Source: an uncultured Methanosarcinales archaeon
GTDB taxonomy: Archaea; Nanobdellota; Nanobdellia; Woesearchaeales; UBA11576
Assembly (NCBI GenBank): GCA_964406185.1
Contig: CAYOQS010000003.1
Span: 114,459 to 178,458 of the forward strand
DNA: 64,000 bases
Reading direction: 5' to 3'
Of the stretch, positions 5,675 to 58,841 are shown in pieces. The notes under the pieces were generated by a model. It was given only the letters and a program-made list of their open reading frames with translations. It was not told the origin of the DNA and did no database searches. The first letter of the stretch is position 1. Each line of letters begins with the position of its first letter. Both the position numbers and the translations under genes were made by a program.

Positions 5675-6997
5675 TCAAACTTTTCCAACACCGAAATACT
5701 CGAACCCAAATGACTTCAGCATGTCGGGGTCGTAGATGTTCCTGCCGTCAAATATCACAGGGATGTTAAGCATAGACTTTATCTCTGCGAAATCAGGGGC
5801 CCTGAACACATCCCATTCGGTCACTAGCGCCAGACCATCTGCACCCTTAAGTGTTTCGTATTTAGTGTTTGAGAAACTTACCTTATCACCGAAAACCCTC
5901 TTCGTGTTCTCCATCGCCTTGGGATCGTAAGCATTAACCTCTGCGCCCTTTTCAAGAAGATAATCTATTATATATATCGCTGCGGACTCCCTGACATCGT
6001 CAGTCCTGGGCTTGAAAGAAAGACCCCACAACGCAATCCTCTTACCCTTCAACCCCCCTTTTGAAGAGTAGAAAGCATCCATCTTCCCTGCAAGATAAAG
6101 CTTCTGGGCATTGTTGACCTCGTCCACCGCCCTCAATATCTTGGGTGAGTAACCTCTTTCTGACGAAGCCGACATCAACCCCCGTATGTCCTTAGGGAAA
6201 CAACTTCCACCATAACCTACACTTGGAAAATAGAACTCCCAACCTATCCTGGAATCAGAACAGACCCCCTCCCTCACCTCGGATATGTCACCTCCGAATG
6301 CGTCACAGATGTTTGCAGCCTCGTTTATGAAAGAAATCTTAGTAGCAAGACAGGAATTCGCTATTATCTTTGTAAGCTCGGCATTGATCGGCTTCATGAA
6401 TATCAGCTTGCCTCGCTTCAGGGCAAATGGATGGTACAGCTGCTCCATCACACTGCGGGCATCATCAGAATCAGCACCTATTACTATACGGTCAGGACTC
6501 TCAAAATCCTTGATCGCGCGACCCTCCTTCATGAACTCAGGATTTGAGACCACATCAAACCTTGCAGAAGAGCCTGAAAGTTCGGAGGAAACCAATTCCC
6601 TGACCAGCTTATTCGTGCCGGGCGGAACCGTGCTCTTGATGACAACCACCTTATATCCTGAAAGCCGGTTCAGCTCCCGGCCTATGCTCCTGGCAACATC
6701 CTTGACATATTTCAGGTTGAACGAGCCGTCATCGCTCTGTGGAGTGCCAACAGCGATAAAGTAGACATCAGACTCCTTCAGAGCTGAAGAAAGATCTGTC
6801 GTGAATGAAATCTTCTCACTGCCGGAATTGGTTATGATATCTGACAGACCCGGCTCGTAAATAGGTATGACGCCTTTTTTGAGAGATTCTATCTTATCAG
6901 GGTCTATGTCAACGCAAGTGACGGAATGGCCGAACTTGGCAAAAACAGCACCTATCGTCAGACCCACATAACCTGTCCCAATAACCGCAATCCGCAT
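5675..6997 (-). CDS. UDP-glucose/GDP-mannose dehydrogenase family protein (UDP-glucose or UDP-GlcNAc 6-dehydrogenase, WbpA-like)
   Basis: [13 protein letters not shown] Rossmann start, GGSCFPKD active-site Cys, full three-domain length. Start at ATG 6997. Confidence 0.85.
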
Positions 6998-7063
6998 CAA
7001 ACCACCAACATCAGGACAAAAACAAGGCATATAAAAACCTTGCTCCCAAAAAACACAAAAACC

Positions 7064-7070
7064 TTATAAA
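7064..7070 (+). promoter_or_regulatory. TATA box for the 5S rRNA gene
   Basis: TTATAAA lies about 27 nt upstream of the 5S 5' end. Confidence 0.5.
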
Positions 7071-7091
7071 CAACCTCAAAATCCCAGAGTA

Positions 7092-7207
7092 TTGGACGGC
7101 CATAGTGGCTTGGTTACACCGGTACCCATTCCGAACACCGAAGTTAAGCAAGCCTACGTTTGGTGCAGTACTAGCCTTTAGGTTGGGAAACACCAAAAGC
7201 TGTCCCC
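7092..7207 (+). rRNA. rrf: 5S ribosomal RNA, not linked to 16S/23S in this window
   Basis: GGCCATAGTGGC...CCGGTACCCATTCCGAACACCGAAGTTAAGC core. Terminal helix GGACGGC (7094-7100) pairs with GCTGTCC (7199-7205). Confidence 0.9.
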
Positions 7208-7227
7208 TTTTCATAATTCTCAGAAAT

Positions 7228-8088
7228 TCAACAGGTATTCTCCAGTCTGGCCAAGAAAAAGCCCTGTGTCCCTGTCTTATCAGGCCATAAGCGCCTGCAC
7301 AGCCCTGTCCTGCCAGTGGTGCCTTTTTCGCCCAAATCAAGGCCTGTAGAGACCAGCTTCACAGAAAGGTTGTCCAGGGCCCATCCTATCACTTCTTCGT
7401 TTTCCTCCGGCTCCAGGGAGCACGTGCTGTAGACCAAAGCTCCAGATGGCTTCAGGACCTGAACAGCCGCCCTCAGAAGAGACTTCTGCAGCTTGGCCTG
7501 CTCTTTCACACCTTCCAACGATCTCTTGTCAAACCACCCAGGATCAGCCACGAAATTACCAGAGCAGGGAGCATCAAGAAGCACCTTATCAAAAATAACC
7601 CCAAAGTCCTGAGCATGAGCAGCATCCTTCTGATAGACAAGGCAATCCTTAACACCACAGCGCTCAAGATTATTCTTCAAAGCCCGCAACCTCGAAGCAT
7701 TGCTGTCAAGCGCAATTATGGTGCCCTGGTTCTTCATGTACTGGGCAATCTGAGTGGTCTTTGAGCCAGGCGCAGCAGCCATGTCAAGAACACATTCTCC
7801 CTTTTCAGGAGATAACACCCGGACAGGCAGCTGTGAAGCGGCCTCCTGGATGTAAAAGTAGCCATGCAGATACTCAGCAGTCGAGCTCAGGGAGAAGTCT
7901 GCCTCTGCCCAGTAGCCATGGTCAGTGAAAGGGACTTTCTCAAGCCTAACCTTCTTCTTTTTCAGACGCCTGACAAGAACATCTTCAGCAATCTTCAAAG
8001 TGTTTATACGAATGCACTGCCTGAGCTGGACCTTTTCAGGATCAATATCGTGGCCGAGCTCTTTGTAACGCCTCAGGAAGAAGTTCAT
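7228..8088 (-). CDS. NOL1/NOP2/Sun-family RNA cytosine-C5 methyltransferase
   Basis: SAM motif DMAAAPGSKT; catalytic Cys motifs DAPCSG and VYSTCS. Confidence 0.85.
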   Translation of the reverse strand: MNFFLRRYKELGHDIDPEKVQLRQCIRINTLKIAEDVLVRRLKKKKVRLEKVPFTDHGYWAEADFSLSSTAEYLHGYFYIQEAASQLPVRVLSPEKGECVLDMAAAPGSKTTQIAQYMKNQGTIIALDSNASRLRALKNNLERCGVKDCLVYQKDAAHAQDFGVIFDKVLLDAPCSGNFVADPGWFDKRSLEGVKEQAKLQKSLLRAAVQVLKPSGALVYSTCSLEPEENEEVIGWALDNLSVKLVSTGLDLGEKGTTGRTGLCRRLWPDKTGTQGFFLARLENTC

Positions 8089-8993
8089 TTTCGCATCCAG
8101 TCAACAGTACGTCTCAAACCTTCATCAAGCGAGTACTTTATCACAAACCCTTCTTCTTTTAATTTAGATATATCACCGTATGAACGCACAATATCGCCTG
8201 CCCTCGCAGAAGCATATATAATCTCAGAATCGGATCGCGAAATTCTGATAATCCCCTTCGCCAAATCATTAATAGATGTCTCCATACCCGTCCCGACATT
8301 ATATATTCCCACAAGGCTTTCAAGCGCGAGAACACAAACCCGAATCACATCCTTCACATATATGAAATCCCTTGTCTGCTCACCATCACCAAAAATAGTT
8401 ATTGGCCCATCATCCAGCGCCTTGCTGATGAATATAGGGATCGCTGCTGCGTACTGACTCTCAGGATCCTGTCTGGGACCGAATACGTTGAAAAACCTCA
8501 AACAACAAGTCTCAATCTTGCCCTCTTTCTGGTATTTTGACATAAGCTCCTCTGCCTTAAGCTTGGATTCCGCATAAGGGCTCTTAGGGTCCGGAATCAT
8601 GGATTCTTTCTTCGGAAGGACAGGAGAATCACCATATACTGCGCACGAACTTGAGAAAATGACTTTTTTCACACCATTCTTTTCTGCAGCTTTCAGCACG
8701 TTATCTGTACCCATCACATTCACTGCAGAGCATTCCCCAGGATGCTTTACCGACTCTGGCACGCTGATGAATGCCGCAAGATGAAAAACATAATCGCAAC
8801 CATTCATGGCCTTATCTAGGGTCTCAAAATCGGTTACATTTCCTTTGATAAATGTATGCCTCAAACTTTTCAGATTATCTTCAGACCCTGTTGAAAGATT
8901 GTCCAGGACAGTCACATCCGCCTCATCATGAAAATGTTCAACAATATGACTGCCAATAAACCCTGCACCCCCTGTAACCAATATCTTCATCAC
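8085..8993 (-). CDS. NAD-dependent sugar epimerase/dehydratase (UDP-glucose/GlcNAc 4-epimerase-like)
   Basis: MKILVTGGAGFIGSH and catalytic YxxxK (YAESK). Overlaps the downstream gene by 4 nt. Confidence 0.8.
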   Translation of the reverse strand: MMKILVTGGAGFIGSHIVEHFHDEADVTVLDNLSTGSEDNLKSLRHTFIKGNVTDFETLDKAMNGCDYVFHLAAFISVPESVKHPGECSAVNVMGTDNVLKAAEKNGVKKVIFSSSCAVYGDSPVLPKKESMIPDPKSPYAESKLKAEELMSKYQKEGKIETCCLRFFNVFGPRQDPESQYAAAIPIFISKALDDGPITIFGDGEQTRDFIYVKDVIRVCVLALESLVGIYNVGTGMETSINDLAKGIIRISRSDSEIIYASARAGDIVRSYGDISKLKEEGFVIKYSLDEGLRRTVDWMRK

Positions 8994-9583
8994 AAACCCG
9001 CCTCCACATCAACCTGCTGAACGGCTGCGGATTTCTTCTGGTTTATTAAACTGTTTATCCGCTCACACTTCTCCTTTGCCTTGCTCACGAACTGCACCTT
9101 GATTTCTTTCTCCTCTGTGCCTGTCAGCTCGACAGTGATGTCACCAAGACTGGAGGGAGAGTACTCCCTGAAATTGACCCTGATGATGTTTGTGACAGGC
9201 GTCGACCTCGTGATCTTGAAGAAGCTACCGTACGAATAAGCGAGGTTGTTGCCATCGAAGACCAGCTCATAAGAGGTCAATGAGAGCGTGCTGAAGAAAG
9301 CCAGGACAAGCATCAATCCTGATAGGACAACAAAAGCCCGAAAGCCCCACAACAAAGGTATGCCGAAGAAACCGAACGCCTCTGCAAAAGGGTTGGACCC
9401 TGCGAGGTGCTGAACGAGATAGAAAGCGCCCACCAAAGCCGCGATGAAAAAAACAGCCTTTCCCATATTCAGCAGGTACGCGGAAATGAGACTCGGAGAT
9501 ACGACAATCCGCTCCTCTTGGGACGCGCCCTCAGGCGTTCCCTGCGGATATTGCTGTTGAGCTTGTTGAGCGTCCATCCTCAT
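8990..9583 (-). CDS. membrane protein with bacterial-PH-like (YdbT/bPH_2-type) C-terminal region
   Basis: Gln-rich N-terminus and two hydrophobic helices, then LAYSYGSFFKITRSTPVTNIIRVNF. Family assignment is tentative. Confidence 0.4.
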   Translation of the reverse strand: MRMDAQQAQQQYPQGTPEGASQEERIVVSPSLISAYLLNMGKAVFFIAALVGAFYLVQHLAGSNPFAEAFGFFGIPLLWGFRAFVVLSGLMLVLAFFSTLSLTSYELVFDGNNLAYSYGSFFKITRSTPVTNIIRVNFREYSPSSLGDITVELTGTEEKEIKVQFVSKAKEKCERINSLINQKKSAAVQQVDVEAGL

Positions 9584-9593
9584 CAGTCCAGTC

Positions 9594-10724
9594 TCATAAT
9601 TCTATCGTAATCTCGCCAGTCTTTGTGTCTATGCCTTTTATCATCTTATGACCCTTAAACATCTCCTTTATCTCCTTCCAAGATTTCTGGCTCTTCTCCT
9701 CATTAATCTCGGCGATGACCCGCTCTATGAGCTGGTAGTTCTCGTATATGAACTCTGCCTTGCGCTGGTTCTCCTCTGCAGACCTCTCAAGACCATCGAT
9801 GCGAAGCCTCTGCTGGCGGATCACCTCCTCCACCTTATCAAGTTTGGTCTTCGCAGCCTTCTCTGCAGTGTCGATGTCCTTCTTCTCTATCTTCTCTGTA
9901 AGTACACTGTCAAGGGCAGAGTTGAAAGTGTCTGCACTTGTCTGTTGGAATGACCTGTAGAATTCTAATCCAAAAGGAACTATATCTTTTATCTGGCCTT
10001 CGGCAAACTTGTAGATAGTGGGAGAAAGTTCTTTATCCCTGATTGCTTGTATTGCTTCGTGAAGGGAGGAGATCTCCTTATCAGAAAGCTGGGCAGGCTT
10101 CAGGTTCTTGTCAATCCCTGCGAGAAGGCAGAGCTCCTCTGCATAGACACCTCCAAGACCAAGCTCTATGGCAAGAGCCTTGACCAGGCTCTCCTTCTGC
10201 GACCTGTGGAGAAGATTAGTCAGGTCATCTTTATCGATCGTTAGGAAGTTGAACTCCTTAGCAGGATACGTGTAAGTCTCACCGGGCTTGACAGAACGGT
10301 CCTTCCACTCCTGCCTCTCAAGCACTGAAAGGATCTTCCTTTCCTCATCGCAGAGGATGATGTTGCCCTTGCTGAAAAGCTCGATCATAAGAATAAATTT
10401 CGCGTCCTTAGTCTCGAACATGAACTCAACGATCCGCTCAAAACCAAGCTGCCTGACACTCCTGAGGCGGGCGTTCTTCAGCTTCCTCCTCAAGTAAAGA
10501 CAGAAGCCCGGCGGCTTCTCAGGCACATCCCCCTTGTTAGAAGCGATGTATATCATACTTCCAAGCACACAACGCAGGATCCTCTTGCCCTTACCAGGAA
10601 TATGAAGCTGAATGATGAGCTCTTCCCTCCCTATCTGATATATCTGCTCCACCTTTGCGCTCAAGAGCTCCTGGAACTCCCTGGCCAAATAGTGCAGCTC
10701 AAGTGAGGAAATCTCTGATTTCAT
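9594..10724 (-). CDS. NFACT-N (FbpA/RqcH/Rqc2-like) protein lacking the NFACT-R domain
   Basis: N-terminus SLELHYLAREFQELL..KVEQIYQIGREELIIQLH, HhH-like LGLGGVYAEELCLLAGID, coiled coil. ORF ends at 376 aa. Confidence 0.65.
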   Translation of the reverse strand: MKSEISSLELHYLAREFQELLSAKVEQIYQIGREELIIQLHIPGKGKRILRCVLGSMIYIASNKGDVPEKPPGFCLYLRRKLKNARLRSVRQLGFERIVEFMFETKDAKFILMIELFSKGNIILCDEERKILSVLERQEWKDRSVKPGETYTYPAKEFNFLTIDKDDLTNLLHRSQKESLVKALAIELGLGGVYAEELCLLAGIDKNLKPAQLSDKEISSLHEAIQAIRDKELSPTIYKFAEGQIKDIVPFGLEFYRSFQQTSADTFNSALDSVLTEKIEKKDIDTAEKAAKTKLDKVEEVIRQQRLRIDGLERSAEENQRKAEFIYENYQLIERVIAEINEEKSQKSWKEIKEMFKGHKMIKGIDTKTGEITIEL

Positions 10725-12023: not shown

Positions 12024-13352
12024 ATGGCGCGCGACATAATCGTAGGAAGACTGGAATCCGACAGGGAGAAATACGGAACAAAAGGCATAGTCCTTCTCGG
12101 CAAGCAATACGTAAAGATGGGCAGGGTCACCAGCCTGTCGAACAGGATATACCTTGATGTAGCAGGCGCTCACGTGATGTTCATCTGCGGAAAAAGAGGA
12201 GGCGGAAAGTCATACACTATGGGCACAATAGCAGAAGGCATGGCAGACCTCCCCCCCGACGTAAAGCAGAACCTCAGCTTCATATTCCTCGACACCATGG
12301 GAGTATACTGGACCATGAAATACCCCAACAAGAAAGACGAAGACCTGCTCGAACAATGGGGATTCAAACCGAAAGGCCTCGACATAATCATCTACACGCC
12401 GAAAGAGTATTACGAGACATATAAAGAGCAAGGCATACCCACAGACAGGCCGTTCTCGATCAAACCATCAGAGCTGGACGCCACAGACTGGTGCTCAGCA
12501 TTTGACCTAAGCCCGAACGAGCCGATGGGCATACTCATAGAAAGGGTAATACACCAGTTGAGGAAAACACAAGGAGACTACGACGTAGACGCGATGGTCC
12601 AGGCAGTACAGCAGGACATAAGATCAGAGCAGAAGACAAAAGACGCGCTGGAGAACCGGCTCAGGAGCACAGAAGCATGGGGCGTGTTCGACATAAAAGG
12701 CACACCGCTCAACGAGCTCGCAGCGCCCGGCCAGGTCACGATACTCGACGTCAGCTGCTACGCCACGATGCCGGGCGGGTGGAAGATAAAATACCTGATA
12801 GTCGGACTTGTCTCGCAGAAACTGTTCCTCCAAAGGATGACAGCAAGGAAAAAAGAAGAATACGACATGGTGCACAGCACGATAGACTACTTCTCAACAG
12901 AAGACGTGGCAAAAAAGAAACAGGAGATGCCTCTCGTATGGCTGGTCATCGACGAAGCTCACGAGTTCCTGCCCAAAGAAGAGGCTGACGCGAACGCAGC
13001 AACAATGCCACTGATAACGATAATGCGAGAGGGAAGGCAGCCAGGAATCAGCCTCATACTGGCGACACAGCAGCCAGGAAAGATACACACAGATGTGATG
13101 ACACAAAGCGACATCGTGCTATCGCACCGCATAACTGCGCGCATGGATGTAGATGCCCTAGGTCTGTTGACGCAATCATATATGAGGGAAGGGCTGACAC
13201 AGGCAGTAGACAACCTGCCCCGGGTTAAAGGTGCAGGAGTCATCTTCGACGACTCGAACGAAAAGCTGTACCCCATGCGAGTCAGGCCCCGCTTCACATG
13301 GCACGGCGGAGAATCACCATCAGCGGTCAAGATAAAGAAAGAAGAGTTCTGA
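12024..13352 (+). CDS. HerA/FtsK-like P-loop ATPase (COG0433/DUF87 type)
   Basis: Walker A GKRGGGKSYT and Walker B LVWLVIDEAHEF. TATA TTTTAAAT at 11992-11999 lies 27 nt before the ATG. No NurA-like partner nearby. Confidence 0.65.
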   Translation: MARDIIVGRLESDREKYGTKGIVLLGKQYVKMGRVTSLSNRIYLDVAGAHVMFICGKRGGGKSYTMGTIAEGMADLPPDVKQNLSFIFLDTMGVYWTMKYPNKKDEDLLEQWGFKPKGLDIIIYTPKEYYETYKEQGIPTDRPFSIKPSELDATDWCSAFDLSPNEPMGILIERVIHQLRKTQGDYDVDAMVQAVQQDIRSEQKTKDALENRLRSTEAWGVFDIKGTPLNELAAPGQVTILDVSCYATMPGGWKIKYLIVGLVSQKLFLQRMTARKKEEYDMVHSTIDYFSTEDVAKKKQEMPLVWLVIDEAHEFLPKEEADANAATMPLITIMREGRQPGISLILATQQPGKIHTDVMTQSDIVLSHRITARMDVDALGLLTQSYMREGLTQAVDNLPRVKGAGVIFDDSNEKLYPMRVRPRFTWHGGESPSAVKIKKEEF

Positions 13353-13527: not shown

Positions 13528-13890
13528 ATGGTTTTCAGCAAAAGCTTTCCAAGAGAAATACAAGGAAGCAACTGGCCAAAATGGGAAGAGATATTCCTCT
13601 CAGCACAAGAGGAACGCGAAAGAGAGCAGGTGGCAAGACAGGAGAACCTGTTCCTCATCCGGCAATGCCTTGCGGACGCCCGCAACGTGCTGAAAGATGA
13701 GAAGATGATGGACATGCAAAGCCACGTACTCTCTGTCGCGCTGGCACTCTTCAGGAAAAGAGCGAGCCACTCGGTCTTCTACAAGGAAGAGAGATGCCAG
13801 GAGAAATTCCTCAAGTACTGGGGAAAGAAATTCCCAAAGCCAGCAGAGAAGAAAGAGACGAAAAAAGCAAAGAAGACAAAGAAGAAATAG
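13528..13890 (+). CDS. hypothetical protein with Lys-rich C-terminal tail
   Basis: ATG 13528 sits about 27 nt after an ATATTAAGG box. No motif recognised. Tail is KKETKKAKKTKKK. Confidence 0.4.
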   Translation: MVFSKSFPREIQGSNWPKWEEIFLSAQEEREREQVARQENLFLIRQCLADARNVLKDEKMMDMQSHVLSVALALFRKRASHSVFYKEERCQEKFLKYWGKKFPKPAEKKETKKAKKTKKK

Positions 13891-13945
13891 CTTCCGAAAT
13901 CATTTATTATTTTATTTTTTATTTGTTAAGCTGTTATCGGCATCA

Positions 13946-14100
13946 CTACCACGCTGCTAGAGGTTAAATAGGCGTTCTAACTGCTGTTTAAACTGACCGT
14001 GCTTGCGCAATACATCAAGAACTTTGTTGAGTGCAACCCTTTCCACAGTCATAAGGCAAGGACGCGCACAAAGCGGCGTTAGTGCTGCCTGACCGAGCTG
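13946..14100. repeat. conserved intergenic element, copy A (homologous to 53193-53330)
   Basis: Shares ordered blocks with copy B: CCACGCTGCTA, ACCGTGCTTGC exactly 47 nt later, CTTGCGCAAT, GTGCARCC, CACWGT, GGACRCGCAC, AGCGGCG. Confidence 0.7.
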
Positions 14101-14111
14101 AACAAATACTT

Positions 14112-19281: not shown

Positions 19282-20088
19282 ATGGAACTCACACCAGAAC
19301 AGCAGAAAGCCATAGAACAACAGAAAGCGCAATGCATATTCTGCCAGATAATAGAAGGAAAAGTTCCCAGCAAGAAAGTCTATGAAGACGCTCGGCTTCT
19401 GGGGATCCTCGACATAAACCCTGCTTCCGGAGGGCACGTGCTGCTCATGCCTAAAGAGCACTACCCAATCATGCCACTCATACCCCCCGACACATTCAAA
19501 CACATGTTCTCAAAACTCAAAGATATAGACCAGTGCGTGAAGCAAGCCCTGCTCTGCAAGGAGACAACAGTCCTGATAGCCAACGGAGCGGCAGCAGGGC
19601 AGCAAAGCACACACTTCATGCTCCACATAATACCACGCGAAGGAGGGGACGGACTGGACATGCTCGACCTCAAAGGGAAAGAAGCACCAGAAGAAGAGAC
19701 AAAAGAAGTTATGGAAAAGACCGCGCCAGCGCTGAAAGCCATACTAGGCAGAAACCTCCCGGCTCTGGGTTATACAGAAGCCACGGGCGATGCGGGGGGT
19801 GAACCAGAAGTGCCGCAGGACCTAACAAAAGAACAACTCCTCCAGATAATCGACAGCAACCCCCAGCTGAAAGACATAATAACGCAAAAGCCGGACCAGT
19901 TCAAGCAGCTGGTGCCCAGGCACCCACAGCTGAGCCAGATATTCAAGAAATTTGACCTCGACGATATAATCAAGGAAGTCACAGGAAAAGAGCCTGACAT
20001 GCCCGACAGCAAAGTTCAGGACCCGGAAAAAAAGGAGAAAGAAGGGAAGAAGCCAGGCAAGCTGAGCCTGGACGGAGCGCTGAAATGA
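19282..20088 (+). CDS. HIT-fold protein with degenerate histidine triad and NPQL-repeat (STI1-like) C-terminal extension
   Basis: CIFCQIIEGKVPSKKVYED..GHVLLMPKEH. The triad region reads GQQSTHFMLHIIPR, with the middle His replaced by Met. TATA 19251-19258 lies 27 nt before the ATG. Confidence 0.75.
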   Translation: MELTPEQQKAIEQQKAQCIFCQIIEGKVPSKKVYEDARLLGILDINPASGGHVLLMPKEHYPIMPLIPPDTFKHMFSKLKDIDQCVKQALLCKETTVLIANGAAAGQQSTHFMLHIIPREGGDGLDMLDLKGKEAPEEETKEVMEKTAPALKAILGRNLPALGYTEATGDAGGEPEVPQDLTKEQLLQIIDSNPQLKDIITQKPDQFKQLVPRHPQLSQIFKKFDLDDIIKEVTGKEPDMPDSKVQDPEKKEKEGKKPGKLSLDGALK

Positions 20089-20762
20089 AAGAAGGATGCA
20101 AGCACTGCGAAACCCTGGAAAAAAAGGAGAACATCCTATATGAGGATGATAAGTTCGCAGCACTGATACCAGCGAAACCCGCTACAAAAGGCCACATCCA
20201 GCTAATATCCAAAGAGCACGCAGAGACCATGCAGGATCTGGACGGCAAAGATGTCGAGCACGCATGGTACGCGGCCAGCTTCACAGCAACAGCGCTGTTC
20301 GAGAACCTCCAGGCGCAAGGCACCAATCTCATCGTCAACACAGGCAGTGAGATGAAGAAAGGAGGGCACTTCCACATAGACGTGCTGGCAAGGTACAACG
20401 AGGACGGGCTAAACCTCCTCTGGCAGCCCAAAAAGCTGGGAGAGGACGAGATGAAGAAGTTACAGGCAAAGATCAAGGACAAGTGCGACATGATAGGCGT
20501 CGAGAGGAAAGAGAAAGAGGTCCTCGACCTTGACAGAAAGCCTGAAAAGATAGAATCCGGTGAAGAGAAGGCTCCTGAAGACTGGAAGAAGGAAACTGGC
20601 GAGGAAAGCCCGAAGGAAAAGAATAGCAGGAAGACAGAAGAAGGAGCAGATGAAAAAAAGCCGAAAAAGCAAGAAAAAGAGACCGGAAAAACAGGCAAGA
20701 AGAAAAAGAAGAAAGAACCAGAGGAAAGCTACCTCATCAGGCAGCTAAGGAGGATACCTTAG
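20085..20762 (+). CDS. HIT-fold protein (HxHxD variant) with long Lys/Glu-rich tail
   Basis: KGHIQLISKEH..GGHFHIDVLAR. ATGA overlap with the upstream HIT gene. Tail of about 90 aa is K/E-rich. Confidence 0.7.
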   Translation: MKEGCKHCETLEKKENILYEDDKFAALIPAKPATKGHIQLISKEHAETMQDLDGKDVEHAWYAASFTATALFENLQAQGTNLIVNTGSEMKKGGHFHIDVLARYNEDGLNLLWQPKKLGEDEMKKLQAKIKDKCDMIGVERKEKEVLDLDRKPEKIESGEEKAPEDWKKETGEESPKEKNSRKTEEGADEKKPKKQEKETGKTGKKKKKKEPEESYLIRQLRRIP

Positions 20763-23552: not shown

Positions 23553-24722
23553 TCAAGATCTTTCAAGCCTTTCAGAAAGGCCGTCTGTGAGCTTCTGCTG
23601 GGTGTCTGTGCTGACCAGTATCGTCCTCTCGTCGATCTCAGCATATGCAAGCCTGCCCTTCAGCTTAAGCTCTTTCAGGTATGCGTAGAAGGAAGTCCTG
23701 CCGCAGAGCTGCTTCTCATTCACGACAATCTCCTCCACCTCTTTTGTCGAATACTTACTCTCACCTACGAGATCAAGTATGAACTTGAGCACATAACCCT
23801 TCCTGTTGGGCATCACCCGGGACATGATATGGCGCTGGAAAGGCGTGCTGGGACTAACCTGCTGGACAACCGGCTGCTGGAACACCTGTGATTGCTGAGC
23901 AGGTTGCGGCCGCGACTGAAGAGGGGTCATTTCAGGCTCTTGTGATGCGTGTCTCGGCCTTTCAGCTATAGCTCTCAGCTCCTTTATCTGCTCTGAAAGC
24001 TCACTTTTTGCCTGTAAAATGCGAGATTCTGCAAAATCGTGTGATTTTTCAAGCTCTTCCTTTGCTGAGACAAGCTCCTGCTGTACTGATGAGAGGCTTG
24101 ACTTAAGCTCGCCATTCTCATGCTGAAGACCATTTACGAGCTCTCTCAGCTTAGAATATGCTTCAAGCCAGTTCTTCTGTATCCTTGTGATATCCTGCTT
24201 CAGATCCTCTTCTTTAGCTTTCTGGCGTTCCAGATGGGTCGAGAGGTAATCTATCCAGGTCTTCAGGCGTCTGATATCTTCTTCTGAGGCTTCCTGGTGT
24301 TCCTTAAGCCTGCTGTGGAACTCACTTTTCAACCCCTCCCTGTGCTCAGAAATCGCTTCAGAGAGCTCCTGGTGCTTGTTTTTTACCTCCTCAGCCGTCC
24401 TGGCAGCTATTTCTGACACCTGGGAGTGTCCTGACCTGAGCTCGTGGTGGGAAGTGTGTAATTTCTGGTGGTTTTCTGTGATTTTTTCGTATTTTTCAGA
24501 TAATCTTGAACTGTGCTCTGAAAGCCGCTGGTTAGACCTATTTAAATAGTCGATCCATTGGCCTATCCTCTCAACCTCCTGCTGGTTGGAGTCTATCTTC
24601 CTGTTGACCTCACCCATATCAGTCTTGATCTGAGCGAAAGCCTGTGCTAGTTGTTCCGAGAAAGTGATGAACCTTCTTTCAAGATCCTTCCTCCTGTTCC
24701 CCTTCAAAATATCAAAAGCCAT
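23553..24722 (-). CDS. long coiled-coil protein with C-terminal winged-helix DNA-binding-like domain
   Basis: About 290 aa of heptad-rich helix, a Gln/Pro linker, then KGYVLKFILDLVGESKYSTKEVEEIV..FYAYLKELKLKGRLAY. GAGG sits 8-10 nt before the ATG. Confidence 0.55.
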   Translation of the reverse strand: MAFDILKGNRRKDLERRFITFSEQLAQAFAQIKTDMGEVNRKIDSNQQEVERIGQWIDYLNRSNQRLSEHSSRLSEKYEKITENHQKLHTSHHELRSGHSQVSEIAARTAEEVKNKHQELSEAISEHREGLKSEFHSRLKEHQEASEEDIRRLKTWIDYLSTHLERQKAKEEDLKQDITRIQKNWLEAYSKLRELVNGLQHENGELKSSLSSVQQELVSAKEELEKSHDFAESRILQAKSELSEQIKELRAIAERPRHASQEPEMTPLQSRPQPAQQSQVFQQPVVQQVSPSTPFQRHIMSRVMPNRKGYVLKFILDLVGESKYSTKEVEEIVVNEKQLCGRTSFYAYLKELKLKGRLAYAEIDERTILVSTDTQQKLTDGLSERLERS

Positions 24723-24774
24723 CAGATCACCCTCATTTTTGAGATGGAAACCATTGAAATATTTAAATCTTGCT

Positions 24775-25078
24775 GTTCAGTTCGTGTTCAGTACGTACCG
24801 GATTCGGACTTTTTAGGGTGGCTTTTTTTCGTATTAAAAGAGCTATGAAACGCTTTTTCGGGTTCAGTACGAACCTGAACCTGAACTGAATTCACGACGG
24901 ATACGTACCTGGAAAGAGACTGGAAAATTAGTTTCTCGACGAGAAAACATATCAGGTAAATATCAGGCAGGTACGGTACGGAGCAGGTCCGAACCTGCCC
25001 GAACCAGGTCAGAAGGCCTGAAACAACTGAATTCGGGCTTCTGAGGCGAGTGCGAACCGGGGACGAACCAGGTACGGG
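24775..25078. repeat. cluster of short repeats (GTTCAG/CTGAAC, CGAACCNG x5, GGTACG)
   Basis: GTTCAG at 24775, 24786 and 24862. CGAACC at 24870, 24990, 25000, 25053 and 25064. CAGGTACGG occurs twice. Confidence 0.7.
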
Positions 25079-25172
25079 TCCGAGAAAAAAAGATGATGCG
25101 GTGGATCACGGGCGGATCATCGGAAAGGATAACAGGATATCGAGAGGAAAGAAAGAGCAGATTGATCAGAGA

Positions 25173-25247
25173 GATAATATATATTTCAACAAAGTTATTT
25201 TATCATAGTTTTTTTCTAATGATTCTTTCTGAACATATATTTTTGAG
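25173..25247. other. AT-rich core between two repeat clusters (possible unwinding element)
   Basis: GATAATATATATTTCAACAAAGTTATTTTATCATAGTTTTTTTCTAATGATTCTTTCTGAACATATATTTTT. Confidence 0.4.
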
Positions 25248-25283
25248 TTGAAGTAATGGTCGGAACATCATGATGATCTGATC

Positions 25284-25606
25284 GAAGTGAGACGAGTGGG
25301 AGGGGGTCGAGAAAGGCTACAAAAAACAAAGCAAAAATACGGAAGTGAGACACAGGAATAACGGGCCCGAATCTCTGATATCGGAAAATTGCCTAAAAAT
25401 CACTAAAAAACAGCTGAAAGTGAGCGGTTTTGCCCAGTAAAAATCTTTCAGGAAGCATGAAAAGCCACCAAAAATGTCCCTAACTGCCTGAAAGTGAGGG
25501 TCAAAACAGAGAAGAATAATAAAAATACACGATAGTGAGGCAAAAACAGCAGAAATAGGCTATAAATAGCTCGAAACAGGGAAATAAGTGCCTGAAAGAC
25601 TGAGAC
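25284..25606 (+). repeat. six same-strand copies of GA(A)AGTGAG(R) with 42-84 bp spacing
   Basis: Copies at 25284, 25342, 25414, 25487, 25531 and 25591. Two are preceded by AAAAATAC and three by CTG. Confidence 0.7.
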
Positions 25607-25662
25607 AGTAGAAAAAAAGACTAAAGTATTTTAGCAAAAAATATTAGCAATAGCCTACTGGA

Positions 25663-25860
25663 TCAGAACTTCTTGAACTGAGAGGCCGTGTCTATCAGCT
25701 CCACATGACCCATAAGCTGCTGCCTACAGCAGTATCTCTCAATGCCCAGGTTGTCAAGAACCTTCTTCACAGACTCCCCTTTGGCCACCCTCTCCTGGAA
25801 ATCCTCCCAGAGGTGCGCTATGGGCTTGCCACAGCTCCAGCATCTTATCGGAATAATCAT
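25663..25860 (-). CDS. rpoN: DNA-directed RNA polymerase subunit N (Rpo10)
   Basis: MIIPIRCWSCGKPI zinc motif, 65 aa, last gene of the r-protein/RNAP cluster. Confidence 0.9.
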   Translation of the reverse strand: MIIPIRCWSCGKPIAHLWEDFQERVAKGESVKKVLDNLGIERYCCRQQLMGHVELIDTASQFKKF

Positions 25861-25936
25861 ATTTTTTCACCTGTATCGATGGATAAGCGCAAAAAAAGTG
25901 AGCAGAAGCGTGATATTCCCTGCTCAGTTTATCTGC

Positions 25937-41988: not shown

Positions 41989-42021
41989 TTTTATATATCC
42001 TTTTTTCTGAACATTATCAAA

Positions 42022-42279
42022 ATGGGATTTGTGAGAATTCTGATGGCATTATCCATATTGGCTGTGCTGGCCCTTGACGGAGGACTGTTCCTGCTCACAT
42101 TAGGCCACGACCTGGAAGAGTGCACCACAGCTCTGGTGAGAGAGCAGGGTTACTCCCAAGAGAAAGCACGTGAAGGGTGCGAATTCCCTGAAATGCTTGT
42201 AAATTACAGATACTTCCTTTACGGTATCTCCGCTGTACTGATAATCCTCTTCGGCCATATCTTCAAGAAAGTCGATTAA
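42022..42279 (+). CDS. small membrane protein (85 aa, 2 TM)
   Basis: Two hydrophobic helices flanking a Cys-containing loop. Same strand and tightly spaced after the trio. Confidence 0.45.
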   Translation: MGFVRILMALSILAVLALDGGLFLLTLGHDLEECTTALVREQGYSQEKAREGCEFPEMLVNYRYFLYGISAVLIILFGHIFKKVD

Positions 42280-42280
42280 G

Positions 42281-42288
42281 TTTATATA
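42281..42288 (+). promoter_or_regulatory. TATA box for tRNA-Leu(CAA)
   Basis: TTTATATA lies about 38 nt before the tRNA 5' end. Confidence 0.45.
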
Positions 42289-42322
42289 CCAGCTCAGGCT
42301 CTCCAGATTCGCCCAAATCACT

Positions 42323-42549
42323 GAGGGGGTGCCGGAGTGGCCAAAACCGCCATGCACCTGCAGGCGGAGGCTATACGGGACAGCTTTTACTGTCCATAGG
42401 CATTAAAAGTCCAAACTCAAGTTTGGTTGAGTGCTGAGGTCTAAAACACCGATGAAGAACTCCGATGGGTCATCTGTTGGCTTAGTGCCTACCAGGGTTC
42501 AAATTGCGGCAAGCCTGCACGGTTCCGCGTGAAAGTCCCTGCCCCCTCA
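42323..42549 (+). tRNA. tRNA-Leu (candidate anticodon CAA), 227-nt gene with four inserted blocks
   Basis: Acceptor GAGGGGG/CCCCCTC, A73, D region TGCCGGAGTGGCCAAAA..CGG, variable arm TGGCTTAGTGCC and T arm CAGGG-TTCAAAT..CCCTG. All are shared with tRNA-Leu(GAG). Anticodon arm is CCAAA-CTCAAG-TTTGG (loop one nt short). Confidence 0.7.
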
Positions 42550-44066: not shown

Positions 44067-44248
44067 TTTTTCTTGAGTTCTTTCCAACATTATCTGTCAT
44101 AGTTTTAGATACCTAATCAATAGTATGGTGGGCCTTCGGCAGAACCATACATAGATAGTTCTAAATGCGCAGACTTCCTGGTCCTGCGCAACCTACTGCT
44201 TGGGTGGGTGGTCAGGGGTCGGAAGGAGTGTGACAGCATGCTCATCAG

Positions 44249-44382
44249 AAAAAAAGGATCTGTGCCCGCTCATCAGTTACCAGCCACAACTGGTTACGCT
44301 CGGTTGACACGCAAGACCCGGTGCTATCTCGCTATACTCGATAGCACGAAAAAAAAAGGATTTGTGCCAGCTCATCAGTTAC
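44249..44382. repeat. two direct copies of a 25-nt core preceded by A7/A9 (plus strand) = shared 3' module plus T-run on the minus strand
   Basis: A7-GGATCTGTGCCCGCTCATCAGTTAC (44249-44280) and A9-GGATTTGTGCCAGCTCATCAGTTAC (44349-44382) differ at 2 positions. A third GCTCATCAG lies at 44240-44248. Confidence 0.75.
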
Positions 44383-44433
44383 TCCATCTGCCATAGAGGC
44401 ACTGGTGTTCACTTAATCATCGCTGGTAGCACT
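44358..44433 (-). ncRNA. candidate small RNA (about 75 nt) with K-turn/box C/D-like ends
   Basis: Minus-strand TATA (TTTATATAAA, 44457-44466) lies about 27 nt upstream. Terminal pairing is GUGC..CCAGC / GCUGG.CAC. GCGAUGA (C-like) and CUGA (D-like) flank it, and a T9 terminator lies at 44349-44357. Confidence 0.4.
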
Positions 44434-44538
44434 CCTCAAAGCATGGTGAGAGGCCATTTATATAAATATCTATTTTTTGCCCCTAATCAGTAGTGTCAAA
44501 ACGCAAGATTTAAATAGGGCTGTGGCTTAAAAATAAAT

Positions 44539-55066: not shown

Positions 55067-55130
55067 TCTGGAAAAAAAAATCCCGGTGGGCAGCACAAAT
55101 CAGAGATCTGCCGGTCCACCAGGTGCGTGA

Positions 55131-55243
55131 AGCCCCTGGTGGGAACTGCACCCACGACCTGCTGCTTATTGCCCGTTGGGTCTGACCAACTCGAGGCAGC
55201 CGCTATCTGTAGGGCCGAGGCCTAGCTACTAAGCCACAGGGGC
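55131..55243 (-). tRNA. tRNA-like gene with inserts and a non-canonical T-loop (possible pseudogene or atypical tRNA; anticodon arm candidate GCTGC-CTCGAG..A-GCAGC)
   Basis: Acceptor GCCCCTG/CAGGGGC, D-arm start TGGCTTAGT, variable AGGTC, T stem GTGGG/CCCAC but loop TGCAGTT. Isotype unresolved. Confidence 0.4.
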
Positions 55244-55249
55244 GTATGA

Positions 55250-55405
55250 TCATAACTTCTCCAGCAGGTCCGACTTCTTAGGGAACTTCCTCTGGCACTC
55301 ACTGCAGACAGTGAACTTCTTCCCCTTCCCGTCCTTGACAACAGTCCCTATCGGCTTCTTAAGGAAAGTCTCCTGGATCCTGGACCTGCATATCGCACAC
55401 TTCAT
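55250..55405 (-). CDS. small zinc-ribbon protein (51 aa)
   Basis: MKCAICRSRIQETFLKKPIGTVVKDGKGKKFTVCSECQRKFPKKSDLLEKL with two CxxC pairs. Below the ORF-track length cutoff. Confidence 0.5.
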   Translation of the reverse strand: MKCAICRSRIQETFLKKPIGTVVKDGKGKKFTVCSECQRKFPKKSDLLEKL

Positions 55406-55519
55406 GAGAAGCGAAAATAAAGGGATAGTATTTAAATCTAATGTTACAGGTCCTGAGACTGCCTAATCGACGAGAGAACACGAAAACATTTATATATAAT
55501 CTTCGGATTAATCCACCTG

Positions 55520-57080: not shown

Positions 57081-58841
57081 ATGGCCCGTATAGCGATAGT
57101 GAAGAAATCAGAATGCAACCCGATAGGGTGCGGAGGGTATCTCTGCGCAAAAGTCTGCCCTGTAAACAGAAAGGGAGAAGAATGCATAAAGCCAGACCCC
57201 GACATCAGGAAAGCCATGATAGATGAAGAGCTCTGCATAGGGTGCGGAATATGCCCTAACAGGTGCCCCTTCGACGCGATAGACATAATCAACCTCCCGG
57301 AAGAACTAAAACAGGAACCAATACACAGGTACGGACAGAACGGTTTCGCACTTTACTCCCTGCCCACACCAAGATTCGGCAAGGTCGTCGGAGTGCTGGG
57401 CGTCAACGGGATAGGAAAATCAACAGCCATAAAGATACTCGCGGGAGTGCTGAAGCCCAACCTCGGAAGGACAGACGGAAACGAAGCAGAATACACAGAA
57501 CTCATAGAATTCTTCAAAGGCACAGAAGCGCAGACCTTCTTCGAGAGAGTCAGGGACAGCAAGATAACGATATCCTACAAGCCACAGAACGTCGACGTGA
57601 TACCTAAAAAGTTCTCAGGCAACGTCAGGCAGCTGCTGGAGAAAGCAGACCAGAAATGCATACTCGAAAAGGTAACGCAGGCACTTGACCTGGACAAGGT
57701 GCTCGACACAGACATAAAGAAAATATCAGGCGGAGAGCTACAACGTGTCGCGATAGCCGCCACAGTCATGAAAAAAGCCAACTTCTACGTGTTCGACGAG
57801 CCCACATCATACCTCGACATAAAGCAGAGGATAAAAGTCAGCAAGTTCATAAGAGATCTTGCGGACGAAGAGACAGCAGTGCTCGTCATAGAACACGACC
57901 TGATAATACTCGACTACATCACAGACCAGGTCCACATCATGTACGGCAAAGAAGGAGGATTCGGAGTTGTAAGCCTGCCAAAGACCACAAGAGCAGGAAT
58001 AAACATCTTCCTCGAAGGATACCTCCGGGACGAAAACGTAAGGTTCAGGGACGCGCCCATAAAGTTCGAGGCGAAACCGCCCATCCAGAAAGCAGGCAAG
58101 GAAGTCCAGACAAGCTGGGAAGGGCTCAAGACAAGACTCGGCAATTTCCTCCTCAGCGCGGAAAAAGGAGAAGTGTACAAGAACGACGTCATCGGCGTGG
58201 TAGGAGAGAACGGCATAGGAAAGACGAGCTTCGTCAAGATCCTCGCAGGAGTCGACAAGACAGAGAGCGGAAAGACAGAAGGCAAGGTCAAAGTTTCATA
58301 CAAGCCCCAATATCTTGTGGCCGACGAAGACCTGGTCATGAACACGCTCGGAGAGGCGCTTGAGAAATACGAAGCACAGCTCATAAGGCCGCTAAACATA
58401 AAACCGCTGCTCATGAAGAAGCTCTCAGAGCTCAGCGGAGGAGAACTGCAGAGGGTCGCGATAGCGCACTGCCTGTCAAAGAAAGCAGACCTATACCTCC
58501 TCGACGAGCCATCAGCATACCTTGACGTGGAGCAGAGGATAAGGGTGTCCAAGATAATCGCAGACATAATGGAGAAAAGAGGGACATCAGCCATGGTAGT
58601 GGACCACGACCTCCTGTTCATAGACTACATATCAAAGAAACTGACAGTATTCGAAGGCGAGCCCGCAGTGCACGGAACAGTAAGAGGGCCGTTCGACATG
58701 CAGGAAGGAATGAACCGGTTCCTCGAAGGTCTGGACATAACACTCAGGCGGGACGAAGAATCACTGCGGCCCAGGGTGAACAAGCCAGGCAGCCAGAAAG
58801 ACCGGGAGCAGAGAAGTGCTGATAAGCTGTATTATGCGTGA
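57081..58841 (+). CDS. abce1: ABCE1 (RNase L inhibitor/Rli1) ribosome-recycling ATPase
   Basis: N-terminal double 4Fe-4S Cys clusters (CGGYLCAKVCP, CIGCGICPNRCP), two ABC cassettes with GxNGxGKS and LSGGELQR. Confidence 0.9.
   Translation: MARIAIVKKSECNPIGCGGYLCAKVCPVNRKGEECIKPDPDIRKAMIDEELCIGCGICPNRCPFDAIDIINLPEELKQEPIHRYGQNGFALYSLPTPRFGKVVGVLGVNGIGKSTAIKILAGVLKPNLGRTDGNEAEYTELIEFFKGTEAQTFFERVRDSKITISYKPQNVDVIPKKFSGNVRQLLEKADQKCILEKVTQALDLDKVLDTDIKKISGGELQRVAIAATVMKKANFYVFDEPTSYLDIKQRIKVSKFIRDLADEETAVLVIEHDLIILDYITDQVHIMYGKEGGFGVVSLPKTTRAGINIFLEGYLRDENVRFRDAPIKFEAKPPIQKAGKEVQTSWEGLKTRLGNFLLSAEKGEVYKNDVIGVVGENGIGKTSFVKILAGVDKTESGKTEGKVKVSYKPQYLVADEDLVMNTLGEALEKYEAQLIRPLNIKPLLMKKLSELSGGELQRVAIAHCLSKKADLYLLDEPSAYLDVEQRIRVSKIIADIMEKRGTSAMVVDHDLLFIDYISKKLTVFEGEPAVHGTVRGPFDMQEGMNRFLEGLDITLRRDEESLRPRVNKPGSQKDREQRSADKLYYA

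Follow-up and report, generated by a model that had tools for sequence, protein, structure and literature searches.

A conserved non-coding locus between rpoN and a coiled-coil gene in a DPANN lineage: a candidate site for assembly of a large protein-DNA complex

The Non-coding Gap between rpoN and cc389

The subject of this study is an unusually long non-coding gap in a 64,000-nucleotide stretch of contig CAYOQS010000003.1 (positions 114,459 to 178,458 of the forward strand; the whole stretch is referred to here as the window). The Rfam matches of the window to the archaeal signal recognition particle (SRP) RNA, ribonuclease P (RNase P) RNA and 5S ribosomal RNA (rRNA) identify it as archaeal, and the nearest relatives of its proteins are in metagenome bins of Woesearchaeota/Nanoarchaeota (DPANN). 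The gap, at positions 24723-25662, is bounded on one side by the stop codon of rpoN (25663-25860, minus strand), the gene that closes an rpoD-L18e-L13-S9-rpoN operon, and on the other by the start codon of an open reading frame (ORF) of 389 residues (23553-24722, minus strand), which we have labeled cc389 and which is followed by leuS. All descriptions below are in the orientation of these genes, which is the minus strand of the window. At 940 bp, the gap exceeds every other stretch of the window that lacks an ORF or known RNA, the next longest being 515 bp and the median 72.5 bp, and the initial annotation of the window, which had drawn attention to an ORF-free region of this size among short spacers, was therefore borne out.

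The same annotation had divided the gap into two different sets of repeats on either side of an A+T-rich core, and this three-part anatomy is correct. We refer to the repeat array next to cc389 as part (i), to the A+T-rich core, which is present at ~25166-25250, as part (ii), and to the repeats nearest rpoN as part (iii). The repeat copies listed in the annotation were all recovered, none more than 2 nt from its placement there. Part (i) contains GTTCAG at 24775, 24786, and 24862, CTGAAC at 24875 and 24881, and the five expected copies of CGAACCNG (24870, 24990, 25000, 25053, and 25064). The six copies of GA(A)AGTGAG described for part (iii) were more uneven: four are clear on the plus strand (25284, 25342, 25416, and 25490), that at 25531 is a variant, GATAGTGAG, and the sixth, near 25591 (GAAAGACTGAG), is weak and degenerate. 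A T-run does follow each copy on the minus strand, as had been noted, and belongs to a phasing of ~10.5 bp that is described below.

Conservation in Related Loci

We collected 32 related loci using a profile of cc389 homologs against genome contigs, the same profile against metagenome contigs, and exact look-ups of homologs. The gene order rpoN-gap-cc389-leuS is present in every fetched locus with enough sequence. The gaps of these relatives are 600-1650 bp long, ORF-poor and without a conserved ORF, and their final ~400 bp can be aligned even though the adjacent cc389 proteins are only 30-66% identical to one another. Conservation takes the form of contiguous blocks and has no 3-nt periodicity, being equal at the three phases. 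We also considered a protein-coding gene or pseudogene and rejected it, based on the fact that the longest start-to-stop ORF wholly within the gap of the window is 52 aa and that reading frames vary between loci. The lack of 3-nt periodicity, the differing frames and the insertions and deletions of ~11 bp described below together indicate that the gap is not coding. Similarity searches of the region against plasmid and phage DNA found no match.

Six independent contigs (those of loci L007, L016, L023, L024, L026, and L032) start within the gap, and the gap of locus L029 contains a poly-C run of ~30 nt (~2660-2690). Assemblies tend to break here, perhaps from strain variation, low complexity or a change in coverage.

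The Module Array of Part (i)

The pentamer GGTYC and its complement GRACC are the main building units of the conserved blocks of part (i), alongside other palindromes (Table 1). The pentamers recur directly at intervals of 6 or 10-11 bp and also form palindromes with centers of 0-5 bp. The block that contains M3 and M4 reads GAATTC-AGTTCAG-GTTCAG-GTTCGTACTGAACC, and M5 includes GTWCGTACTGAAC-AC-GAACTRAAC. The TATA box of cc389 resembles the boxes that precede the window's 5S, SRP RNA and RNase P RNA genes by 25-30 nt, and the link made in the initial annotation between these repeats and the promoter of the coiled-coil gene is correct. Within the GAATTC-centered box, CTGA..TCAG and CTAA..TTAG co-vary (alignment pair 206/229 is AU:8, GC:7).

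Table 1. Features of the gap, listed from the cc389 end (BRE, transcription factor B recognition element).
Feature	Position	Strand	Description
Shine-Dalgarno-like GAGGGTGAT before the cc389 ATG	24726-24734	minus	GGGGTG/GAGGTG block conserved at the 3' end of the alignment
cc389 BRE/TATA box	24760-24769	minus	GATTTAAATA on the gene strand; TTTAWATA conserved in 23 loci
M5	24772-24809	minus	Consensus GTTCAG-GTTCAG-TWCGTA-CTGAAC-AC-GAACTRAAC; window variant GTCCGAATCCGGTACGTACTGAACACGAACTGAAC
M4-M5 spacer	24810-24857		Length conserved, sequence not
M4 + M3	24858-24912	minus	CAGGTACGTATCCGTCGTGAATTC-AGTTCAG-GTTCAG-GTTCGTACTGAACC on the gene strand; hexamers in tandem, terminating in GTTC-N5-GAAC
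Perfect 13-bp palindrome TTCTCG(T/A)CGAGAA	24932-24946		1-nt center; columns >90% conserved
M2	24970-25012	minus	Two CAGGTTCG boxes 10-11 bp apart, the second entering the palindrome GGTTCGGACC, then CCGTACCGWACC
GAATTC-centered box	25017-25046		CTGAAAC..GAATTC..CGTTTYAGGCC
M1	25050-25084	minus	Consensus palindrome CGAACC-A-GGTTCG; a second CCAGGTTCGGAC (CCAGGTTCG) 11 bp on, running into GGTTC-GGACC
Part (ii), A+T block	25166-25250		Sequence-conserved; A-rich on the gene strand
Part (iii)	25251-25662	minus	Thirteen phased plus-strand A-tracts (gene-strand T-tracts) plus CTCACTT/CTCACTA boxes
CTCACTT/CTCACTA boxes	25285-25291, 25343-25349, 25418-25424, 25492-25498, 25533-25539	minus	On the gene strand

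The distances between modules were measured in 22 loci and are close to fixed, with typical values, from M1 toward the TATA box, of 23, 40, 49-50, 53, 26, 72, and 28 bp. M1 and GAATTC are 22-23 bp apart in 20 loci, GAATTC and M2 are 38-41 bp apart in 21, M2 and TCTCG are 46-52 bp apart in 18, and TCTCG and GAATTCAG are 51-54 bp apart in 17. All loci have 25-26 bp between GAATTCAG and CTGAAC and 27-28 bp between M5 and the TATA box, while M4 and M5 are separated by 72 bp in 18 loci and by 83 bp in three. The spacers between modules keep their length and not their sequence, and near-fixed spacing of this kind across unconserved sequence argues that the array acts as duplex DNA. When a spacer changes in length by at least 4 bp, the change is mostly +9 to +13 or +22 bp, corresponding to one or two helical turns; we consider these changes of ~11 bp to be supportive, rather than decisive, evidence for a duplex DNA site.

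A few loci depart from the common arrangement. In L031, M4 is inverted and duplicated, and in L025 and L030 the modules are rearranged as two clusters ~330 bp apart. The promoter-proximal module of the GTTCGTACTGAAC type is retained even in the most distant loci (L025, L030, and L016), and in the distant homolog locus L016 it is CGTACTGAAC that is retained beside the TATA box. Locus L017 has a short cc389 homolog (199 aa) in another gene context, and there (2644-2746) CTCACTTTTTACTCACGAACTATC lies just upstream of a TATA-like box, which indicates that both word types travel with the cc389 family outside the rpoN-leuS locus.

The repeats exceed chance. The box types are ~20-100 times denser in 23 gaps (27.3 kb) than in 234 kb of flanking sequence: GGTYCGRAC occurs at 1.91/kb in the gaps and 0.021/kb in the flanks, CYCTCACTT at 1.17/kb and 0.055/kb, respectively, and the palindrome TTCTCG-W-CGAGAA has 28 copies within the gaps compared to six in the flanks. 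Within the window, the gap holds four of the seven minus-strand copies of CTCACTT, two of the three tandem GTYCRG-GTYCR sites and one of the three GTTC-N5-GAAC sites per strand.

The A+T Block and the Phased Tract

Part (ii) is conserved in more than base composition: the loci can be aligned through its AAAATA-type words and an AATAT-N2-ATATT palindrome, and the block is recovered by BLASTN between loci. It could hold a promoter.

Part (iii) is distinguished by its periodicity. In the window, its 13 tracts are in phase over ~310 bp, with a best period of 10.45 bp (R = 0.78, P ~0.004), and four of the five boxes share one phase. Across 18 loci, the center-to-center distances between T-tracts of at least 4 nt peak at 10, 20-22, 30-32, 42-44, and 52-54 nt, and power at 10.5 nt is 34, compared to 19.5 +/- 2.3 in segment shuffles, none of 300 of which reached 34. 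Neighboring tracts are spaced within 1.5 nt of a multiple of 10.5 in 66% of cases (~33% expected), a fraction that is at least 0.5 in 17 of the 18 loci. The A/T-tracts elsewhere in the window have no periodicity of the 10.5-bp type. Since phased A-tracts confer intrinsic curvature, part (iii) is expected to be a long curved tract. With its runs of at least four T at a period of ~10.5 bp over hundreds of bp, it resembles the curved DNA with phased A-tracts found upstream of promoters; unlike ordinary DNA of that type, the tract is unusually long (0.3-1.2 kb), is conserved throughout the lineage and carries an oriented, in-phase word, CTCACTTT.

The orientation of the boxes is strict: all 31 copies of CTCACT in the first 11 gaps lie on the gene strand, and the opposite strand has none. 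A profile from 55 instances in 19 loci reads tttt-AA-CC-CTCACTTT(c/t), after which T-rich peaks recur every ~10 nt. The spacer between rpS9 and rpoN (25880-25925, minus strand) contains a hairpin, GAGCAG...CTGCTC, followed by CTCACTTTTTTT, which is the box word of part (iii) plus a T-run, and the box may be linked to the 3' ends of transcripts. The only two plus-strand CTCACTT words of the window, at 24000 and 24321, lie antisense in cc389, where they encode K-S-E, and are probably a coincidence.

These properties bear on one possible explanation of the gap, that it has ordinary intergenic functions only. Part (iii) would then be a terminator or insulator with multiple T-tracts for the highly expressed operon of ribosomal protein and RNA polymerase genes, and parts (i) and (ii) a promoter under an unrelated factor, with no higher-order complex. 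The T-runs are on the sense strand downstream of rpoN and could terminate read-through, the box word follows the rpS9-rpoN hairpin as well, T is in any case abundant at neutral sites of the minus strand, and M5 is at a position where archaeal activators and repressors bind. But termination needs neither 10.5-bp phasing nor, in streamlined genomes (median spacer 72 bp), 0.3-1.2 kb of DNA, and five or more modules at fixed spacing over 300 bp go beyond a simple operator. We therefore think it unlikely that ordinary functions account for the whole gap.

Duplex DNA or Structured RNA

Another possibility, a version of which had been raised in the initial annotation as a long non-coding RNA (ncRNA), is that part (i) is transcribed, from a promoter in part (ii), as a structured ncRNA or a long structured 5' leader. 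Consistent with this, part (ii) contains TATA-like ATATATATT words, a T-run is often found ahead of M1, and positions 24772-25090 fold better than shuffled sequences on both strands (z -3.6 and -5.5), although such z-scores from single sequences are expected of palindrome-rich DNA and are not diagnostic. RNAalifold also predicts helices, with double changes in 61 cells compared to 39.7 in shuffles; these helices appear on both strands and are built from the self-complementary repeat words. In the alignment of 23 sequences, 82.0% of cells pair, compared to 79.9% after partner shuffling, and this near equality indicates that the pairing follows from the conservation of self-complementary words.

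Other evidence is contrary to an RNA. In the local helices, G-U mismatches (74) are about as frequent as A-C mismatches (84), without the strand asymmetry expected of a transcribed helix, and many of the well-conserved palindromes have centers of 0-1 nt and cannot form RNA hairpins. Searches with Rfam 15, of the window at the gathering thresholds and of the region at E-values up to 10, gave only chance-level matches in the region. The array also has spacers of fixed length and unconserved sequence, and the inversion and rearrangements of modules in L031, L025, and L030 would be tolerable for protein sites and not for an RNA fold. Finally, the putative TATA box of part (ii) is replaced by ATCGATATT in relatives of higher GC content. 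Based on these results, we consider a structured RNA to be quite improbable.

The cc389 Protein

The product of cc389 is predicted by AlphaFold to begin with a single helix of ~237 residues (residues 10-246; predicted local distance difference test (pLDDT) scores >90), which is followed by a disordered linker rich in Q and P (247-293) and, at the C-terminus, a winged helix-turn-helix (wHTH) domain with the order H-H-H-H-E-E-H (pLDDT 80). The solved folds nearest to it by Foldseek are those of the PadR/MarR regulators, the centromere binder AspA of pNOB8, and TubR, although these matches are weak (E-values of 0.007-0.09), and for the C-terminal domain only the predicted fold class, wHTH, is established. 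No Pfam or NCBIfam model matches this domain, and comparison of cc389 to the PDB by sequence returned coiled-coil noise only. Among 1.84 billion proteins the domain accounts for 117 representative clusters, which makes it rare, and it occupies the C-terminus in every case. The putative recognition helix of the domain (CGRTSFYAY) does not vary among 22 homologs, down to ~30% overall identity. This invariance, along with the retention of the promoter-proximal module in distant loci, is compatible with recognition of the array by cc389 without proving it.

A long coiled coil fused to a DNA-binding domain, encoded directly downstream of a phased array, raises the possibility that the array is the loading site for a segregation or tethering complex formed by cc389, with regulation of the promoter being secondary. 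In the parC/ParR system of R1, in tubC/TubR and at the AspA site of pNOB8, helically phased short repeats are situated upstream of, and reach, the promoter of a gene for a small DNA-binding protein. The gap is similar to these in that its phased repeats reach the promoter of the gene for a candidate DNA binder, M5 being 28 bp from the TATA box, and, like TubR and AspA, which are among the nearest folds, the candidate has a wHTH as its predicted binding domain. An array of at least 300 bp with an adjoining curved tract, the single occurrence of the array in 64 kb, the rarity of its motifs in the 234 kb of flanks and the long predicted helix of cc389 are also in keeping with a centromere. In contrast to those systems, the gap is on the chromosome, in a syntenic position between rpoN and leuS, the candidate binder has a helix of ~237 residues, and there are several box types rather than one iteron, plus a separate curved tract with CTCACTTT boxes. 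Moreover, the conserved neighborhood has no gene for a nucleoside triphosphatase (NTPase) of the ParA, ParM or TubZ type to act as partner, the downstream gene being leuS in all loci, and the PadR/MarR regulators score as well as the two centromere binders. While the size and order of the array thus recall plasmid centromeres on the promoters of their binder genes, we do not class the locus as a partition system, and a loading site of this kind seems to us unlikely.

RacA of Bacillus subtilis offers a further comparison. It is a chromosome anchor with a helix-turn-helix and a coiled coil, and its palindromic ram sites are clustered at one chromosomal region. The likeness to cc389 is in the fusion of a DNA-binding domain to a long coiled coil and in the clustered palindromic sites; unlike RacA, cc389 has its wHTH at the C-terminus, so that the domain order is reversed, the two have no sequence relationship, and the sites described here are in one promoter-adjacent array. 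A bolder form of the anchoring proposal would make the locus the chromosomal centromere or anchor of the lineage, with cc389 polymerizing on the GGTYC array and curved tract in the manner of a kinetochore and positioning or segregating the small chromosome without an adjacent motor of the ParA type. We rate this, too, as improbable.

Is the Gap a Replication Origin?

The initial annotation had also pointed to the likeness of the gap to an archaeal origin. On this reading, initiator boxes, an A+T-rich unwinding element and bent DNA would make this the chromosomal replication origin. An archaeal origin, oriC, has origin recognition boxes (ORB/mini-ORB) on either side of a DNA unwinding element (DUE) and commonly, though not universally, orc1/cdc6 beside them. 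The gap is like such an origin in being a long intergenic region with two sets of repeats around an A+T-rich block. Curved DNA, which is common at origins, is expected in part (iii), and several contigs break within the gap. In addition, the TTC...GAA dyads are loosely reminiscent of the mini-ORB motif TTCC...GAA. In ORB and mini-ORB elements, the core comprises conserved TTCC and GAA motifs (PMC1904270). No TTCC-N3-5-GGAA or TCCA-N-TGGA was found in 19 gaps totaling 22.5 kb, and, in contrast to the repeats of oriC, those of the gap fall into two dissimilar families, without inversion about the A+T block.

Base composition also weighs against an origin. Throughout the 64 kb, the plus strand has A>T and mostly C>G at the third codon positions of genes in both orientations; on the coding strand, the third-position A/T skew (AT3) is +0.5 to +0.8 for plus-strand genes and -0.1 to -0.7 for minus-strand genes, and the cumulative GC skew is monotonic. 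Minus-strand genes have an AT3 of -0.315 and a third-position G/C skew (GC3) of +0.224 to the left of the gap, and values of -0.428 and +0.186, respectively, to its right, so the skew has the same sign and similar size on both sides. The operons that flank the gap in other loci likewise show no flip. Were the gap an active bidirectional origin or a terminus, the skew would invert there, and the lack of an inversion makes an active origin unlikely.

The gene content of the locus is in agreement with this. A Walker A scan revealed no ORF of the window for a P-loop protein of the Cdc6 type: among ORFs of at least 150 aa, the motif G....GK[ST] is found in only two, at 12024-13352 and 57081-58841 (two sites), and the conserved neighbors of the gap are rpoN and leuS, with no orc1/cdc6 candidate nearby. 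The ribosomal protein operon would also be head-on to a fork leaving the gap, and the array is locked to the cc389 promoter at 28 bp. All considered, that the gap is an origin appears to us very improbable.

The uniform third-codon asymmetry of the plus strand also suggests that the whole window is within one replichore, and most of its genes would be co-directional with a fork moving from right to left if the usual rule of a G/T-rich leading strand applies.

A Candidate Assembly Site at the cc389 Promoter

The explanation that we favor, and which we would give about an even chance of being correct, is that the gap is a conserved double-stranded DNA element of this DPANN (Woesearchaeota-like) lineage, a large phased site for protein-DNA assembly at the promoter of cc389 that is probably bound by cc389 itself. 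Among the readings offered in the initial annotation, the one with most support is that of a complex operator or centromere-like site. The conservation, module order, spacing, phasing, motif enrichment and closeness to the promoter are observed and the wHTH fold is predicted, whereas the identity of the binder and the role of the complex are inferred. In the proposed mechanism, cc389 dimers would occupy the GGTYC modules along one helical face in a cooperative manner, perhaps joined by other factors, and the curved tract and A+T block would aid the wrapping or looping of the DNA into one large nucleoprotein complex. We expect that such a complex would set the transcription of cc389, and perhaps of leuS, as a form of autoregulation, and that the sense-strand T-tracts may serve as a terminator or insulator that keeps transcription of the rpoN operon from reading through. 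The complex may also be a fixed point of chromosomal attachment, with a part in the organization of the chromosome.

Several points weigh against this explanation. The array, at 300 bp or more, is far beyond what an ordinary operator needs, and the function of the CTCACTTT boxes is left unexplained. Some of the palindrome pairs co-vary, which fits a dimeric binder but fits base pairing too. Three of the spacing changes (+4, -5, and +14 bp) are not whole helical turns, and several of the changes of ~11 bp are common to one clade and may reflect single events or the duplication of an 11-bp unit. In addition, the binder could be some protein other than cc389.

The element appears to be unreported. 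Our literature searches, within the library searched, found nothing relevant on an origin in Woesearchaeota or DPANN archaea, or on these motifs, the matches to the motif strings being PCR primers.

Other Features of the Window

The gap is not the only long stretch of the window without an ORF or known RNA, others being at 41989-42503, 44067-44538, 55067-55519, and 13716-14111 (396-515 bp). ARAGORN identified no tRNA genes in the 64 kb. A scan for bacterial promoters and terminators was uninformative, the host being an archaeon. Two adjacent paralogs with HIT domains are encoded on the plus strand (19282-20088 and 20085-20762), and the C-terminal extension of at least the first has only weak, sub-threshold Pfam matches; in related loci, leuS is also flanked by HIT genes.

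The syntenic leuS is mostly of an 880-aa type with the PF13603 editing domain. The leuS genes of L024 (2502-5378) and L030 (2617-5499) encode proteins of 958-960 aa without that domain, and the leuS of L008 (~6946-9825) is just 28-34% identical. The type of synthetase may have been replaced in situ.

Implications for DPANN Chromosomes

The genomes of DPANN archaea are streamlined, and how their chromosomes are regulated and organized is poorly understood. Here, a non-coding locus of ~1 kb keeps its place, module order and spacing despite a neighboring protein that is only 30-66% identical between loci, and the maintenance of order and spacing beside so divergent a neighbor points to strong selection on a large protein-DNA assembly. 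The analysis removes a tempting but in all likelihood wrong annotation of the region as an origin. It also offers a defined DNA target, the GTTCGTACTGAAC and GGTTCGGACC modules, together with a candidate binder from a rare and uncharacterized family. If the complex is architectural and not purely regulatory, the locus would represent a new kind of chromosome-organizing site in archaea.

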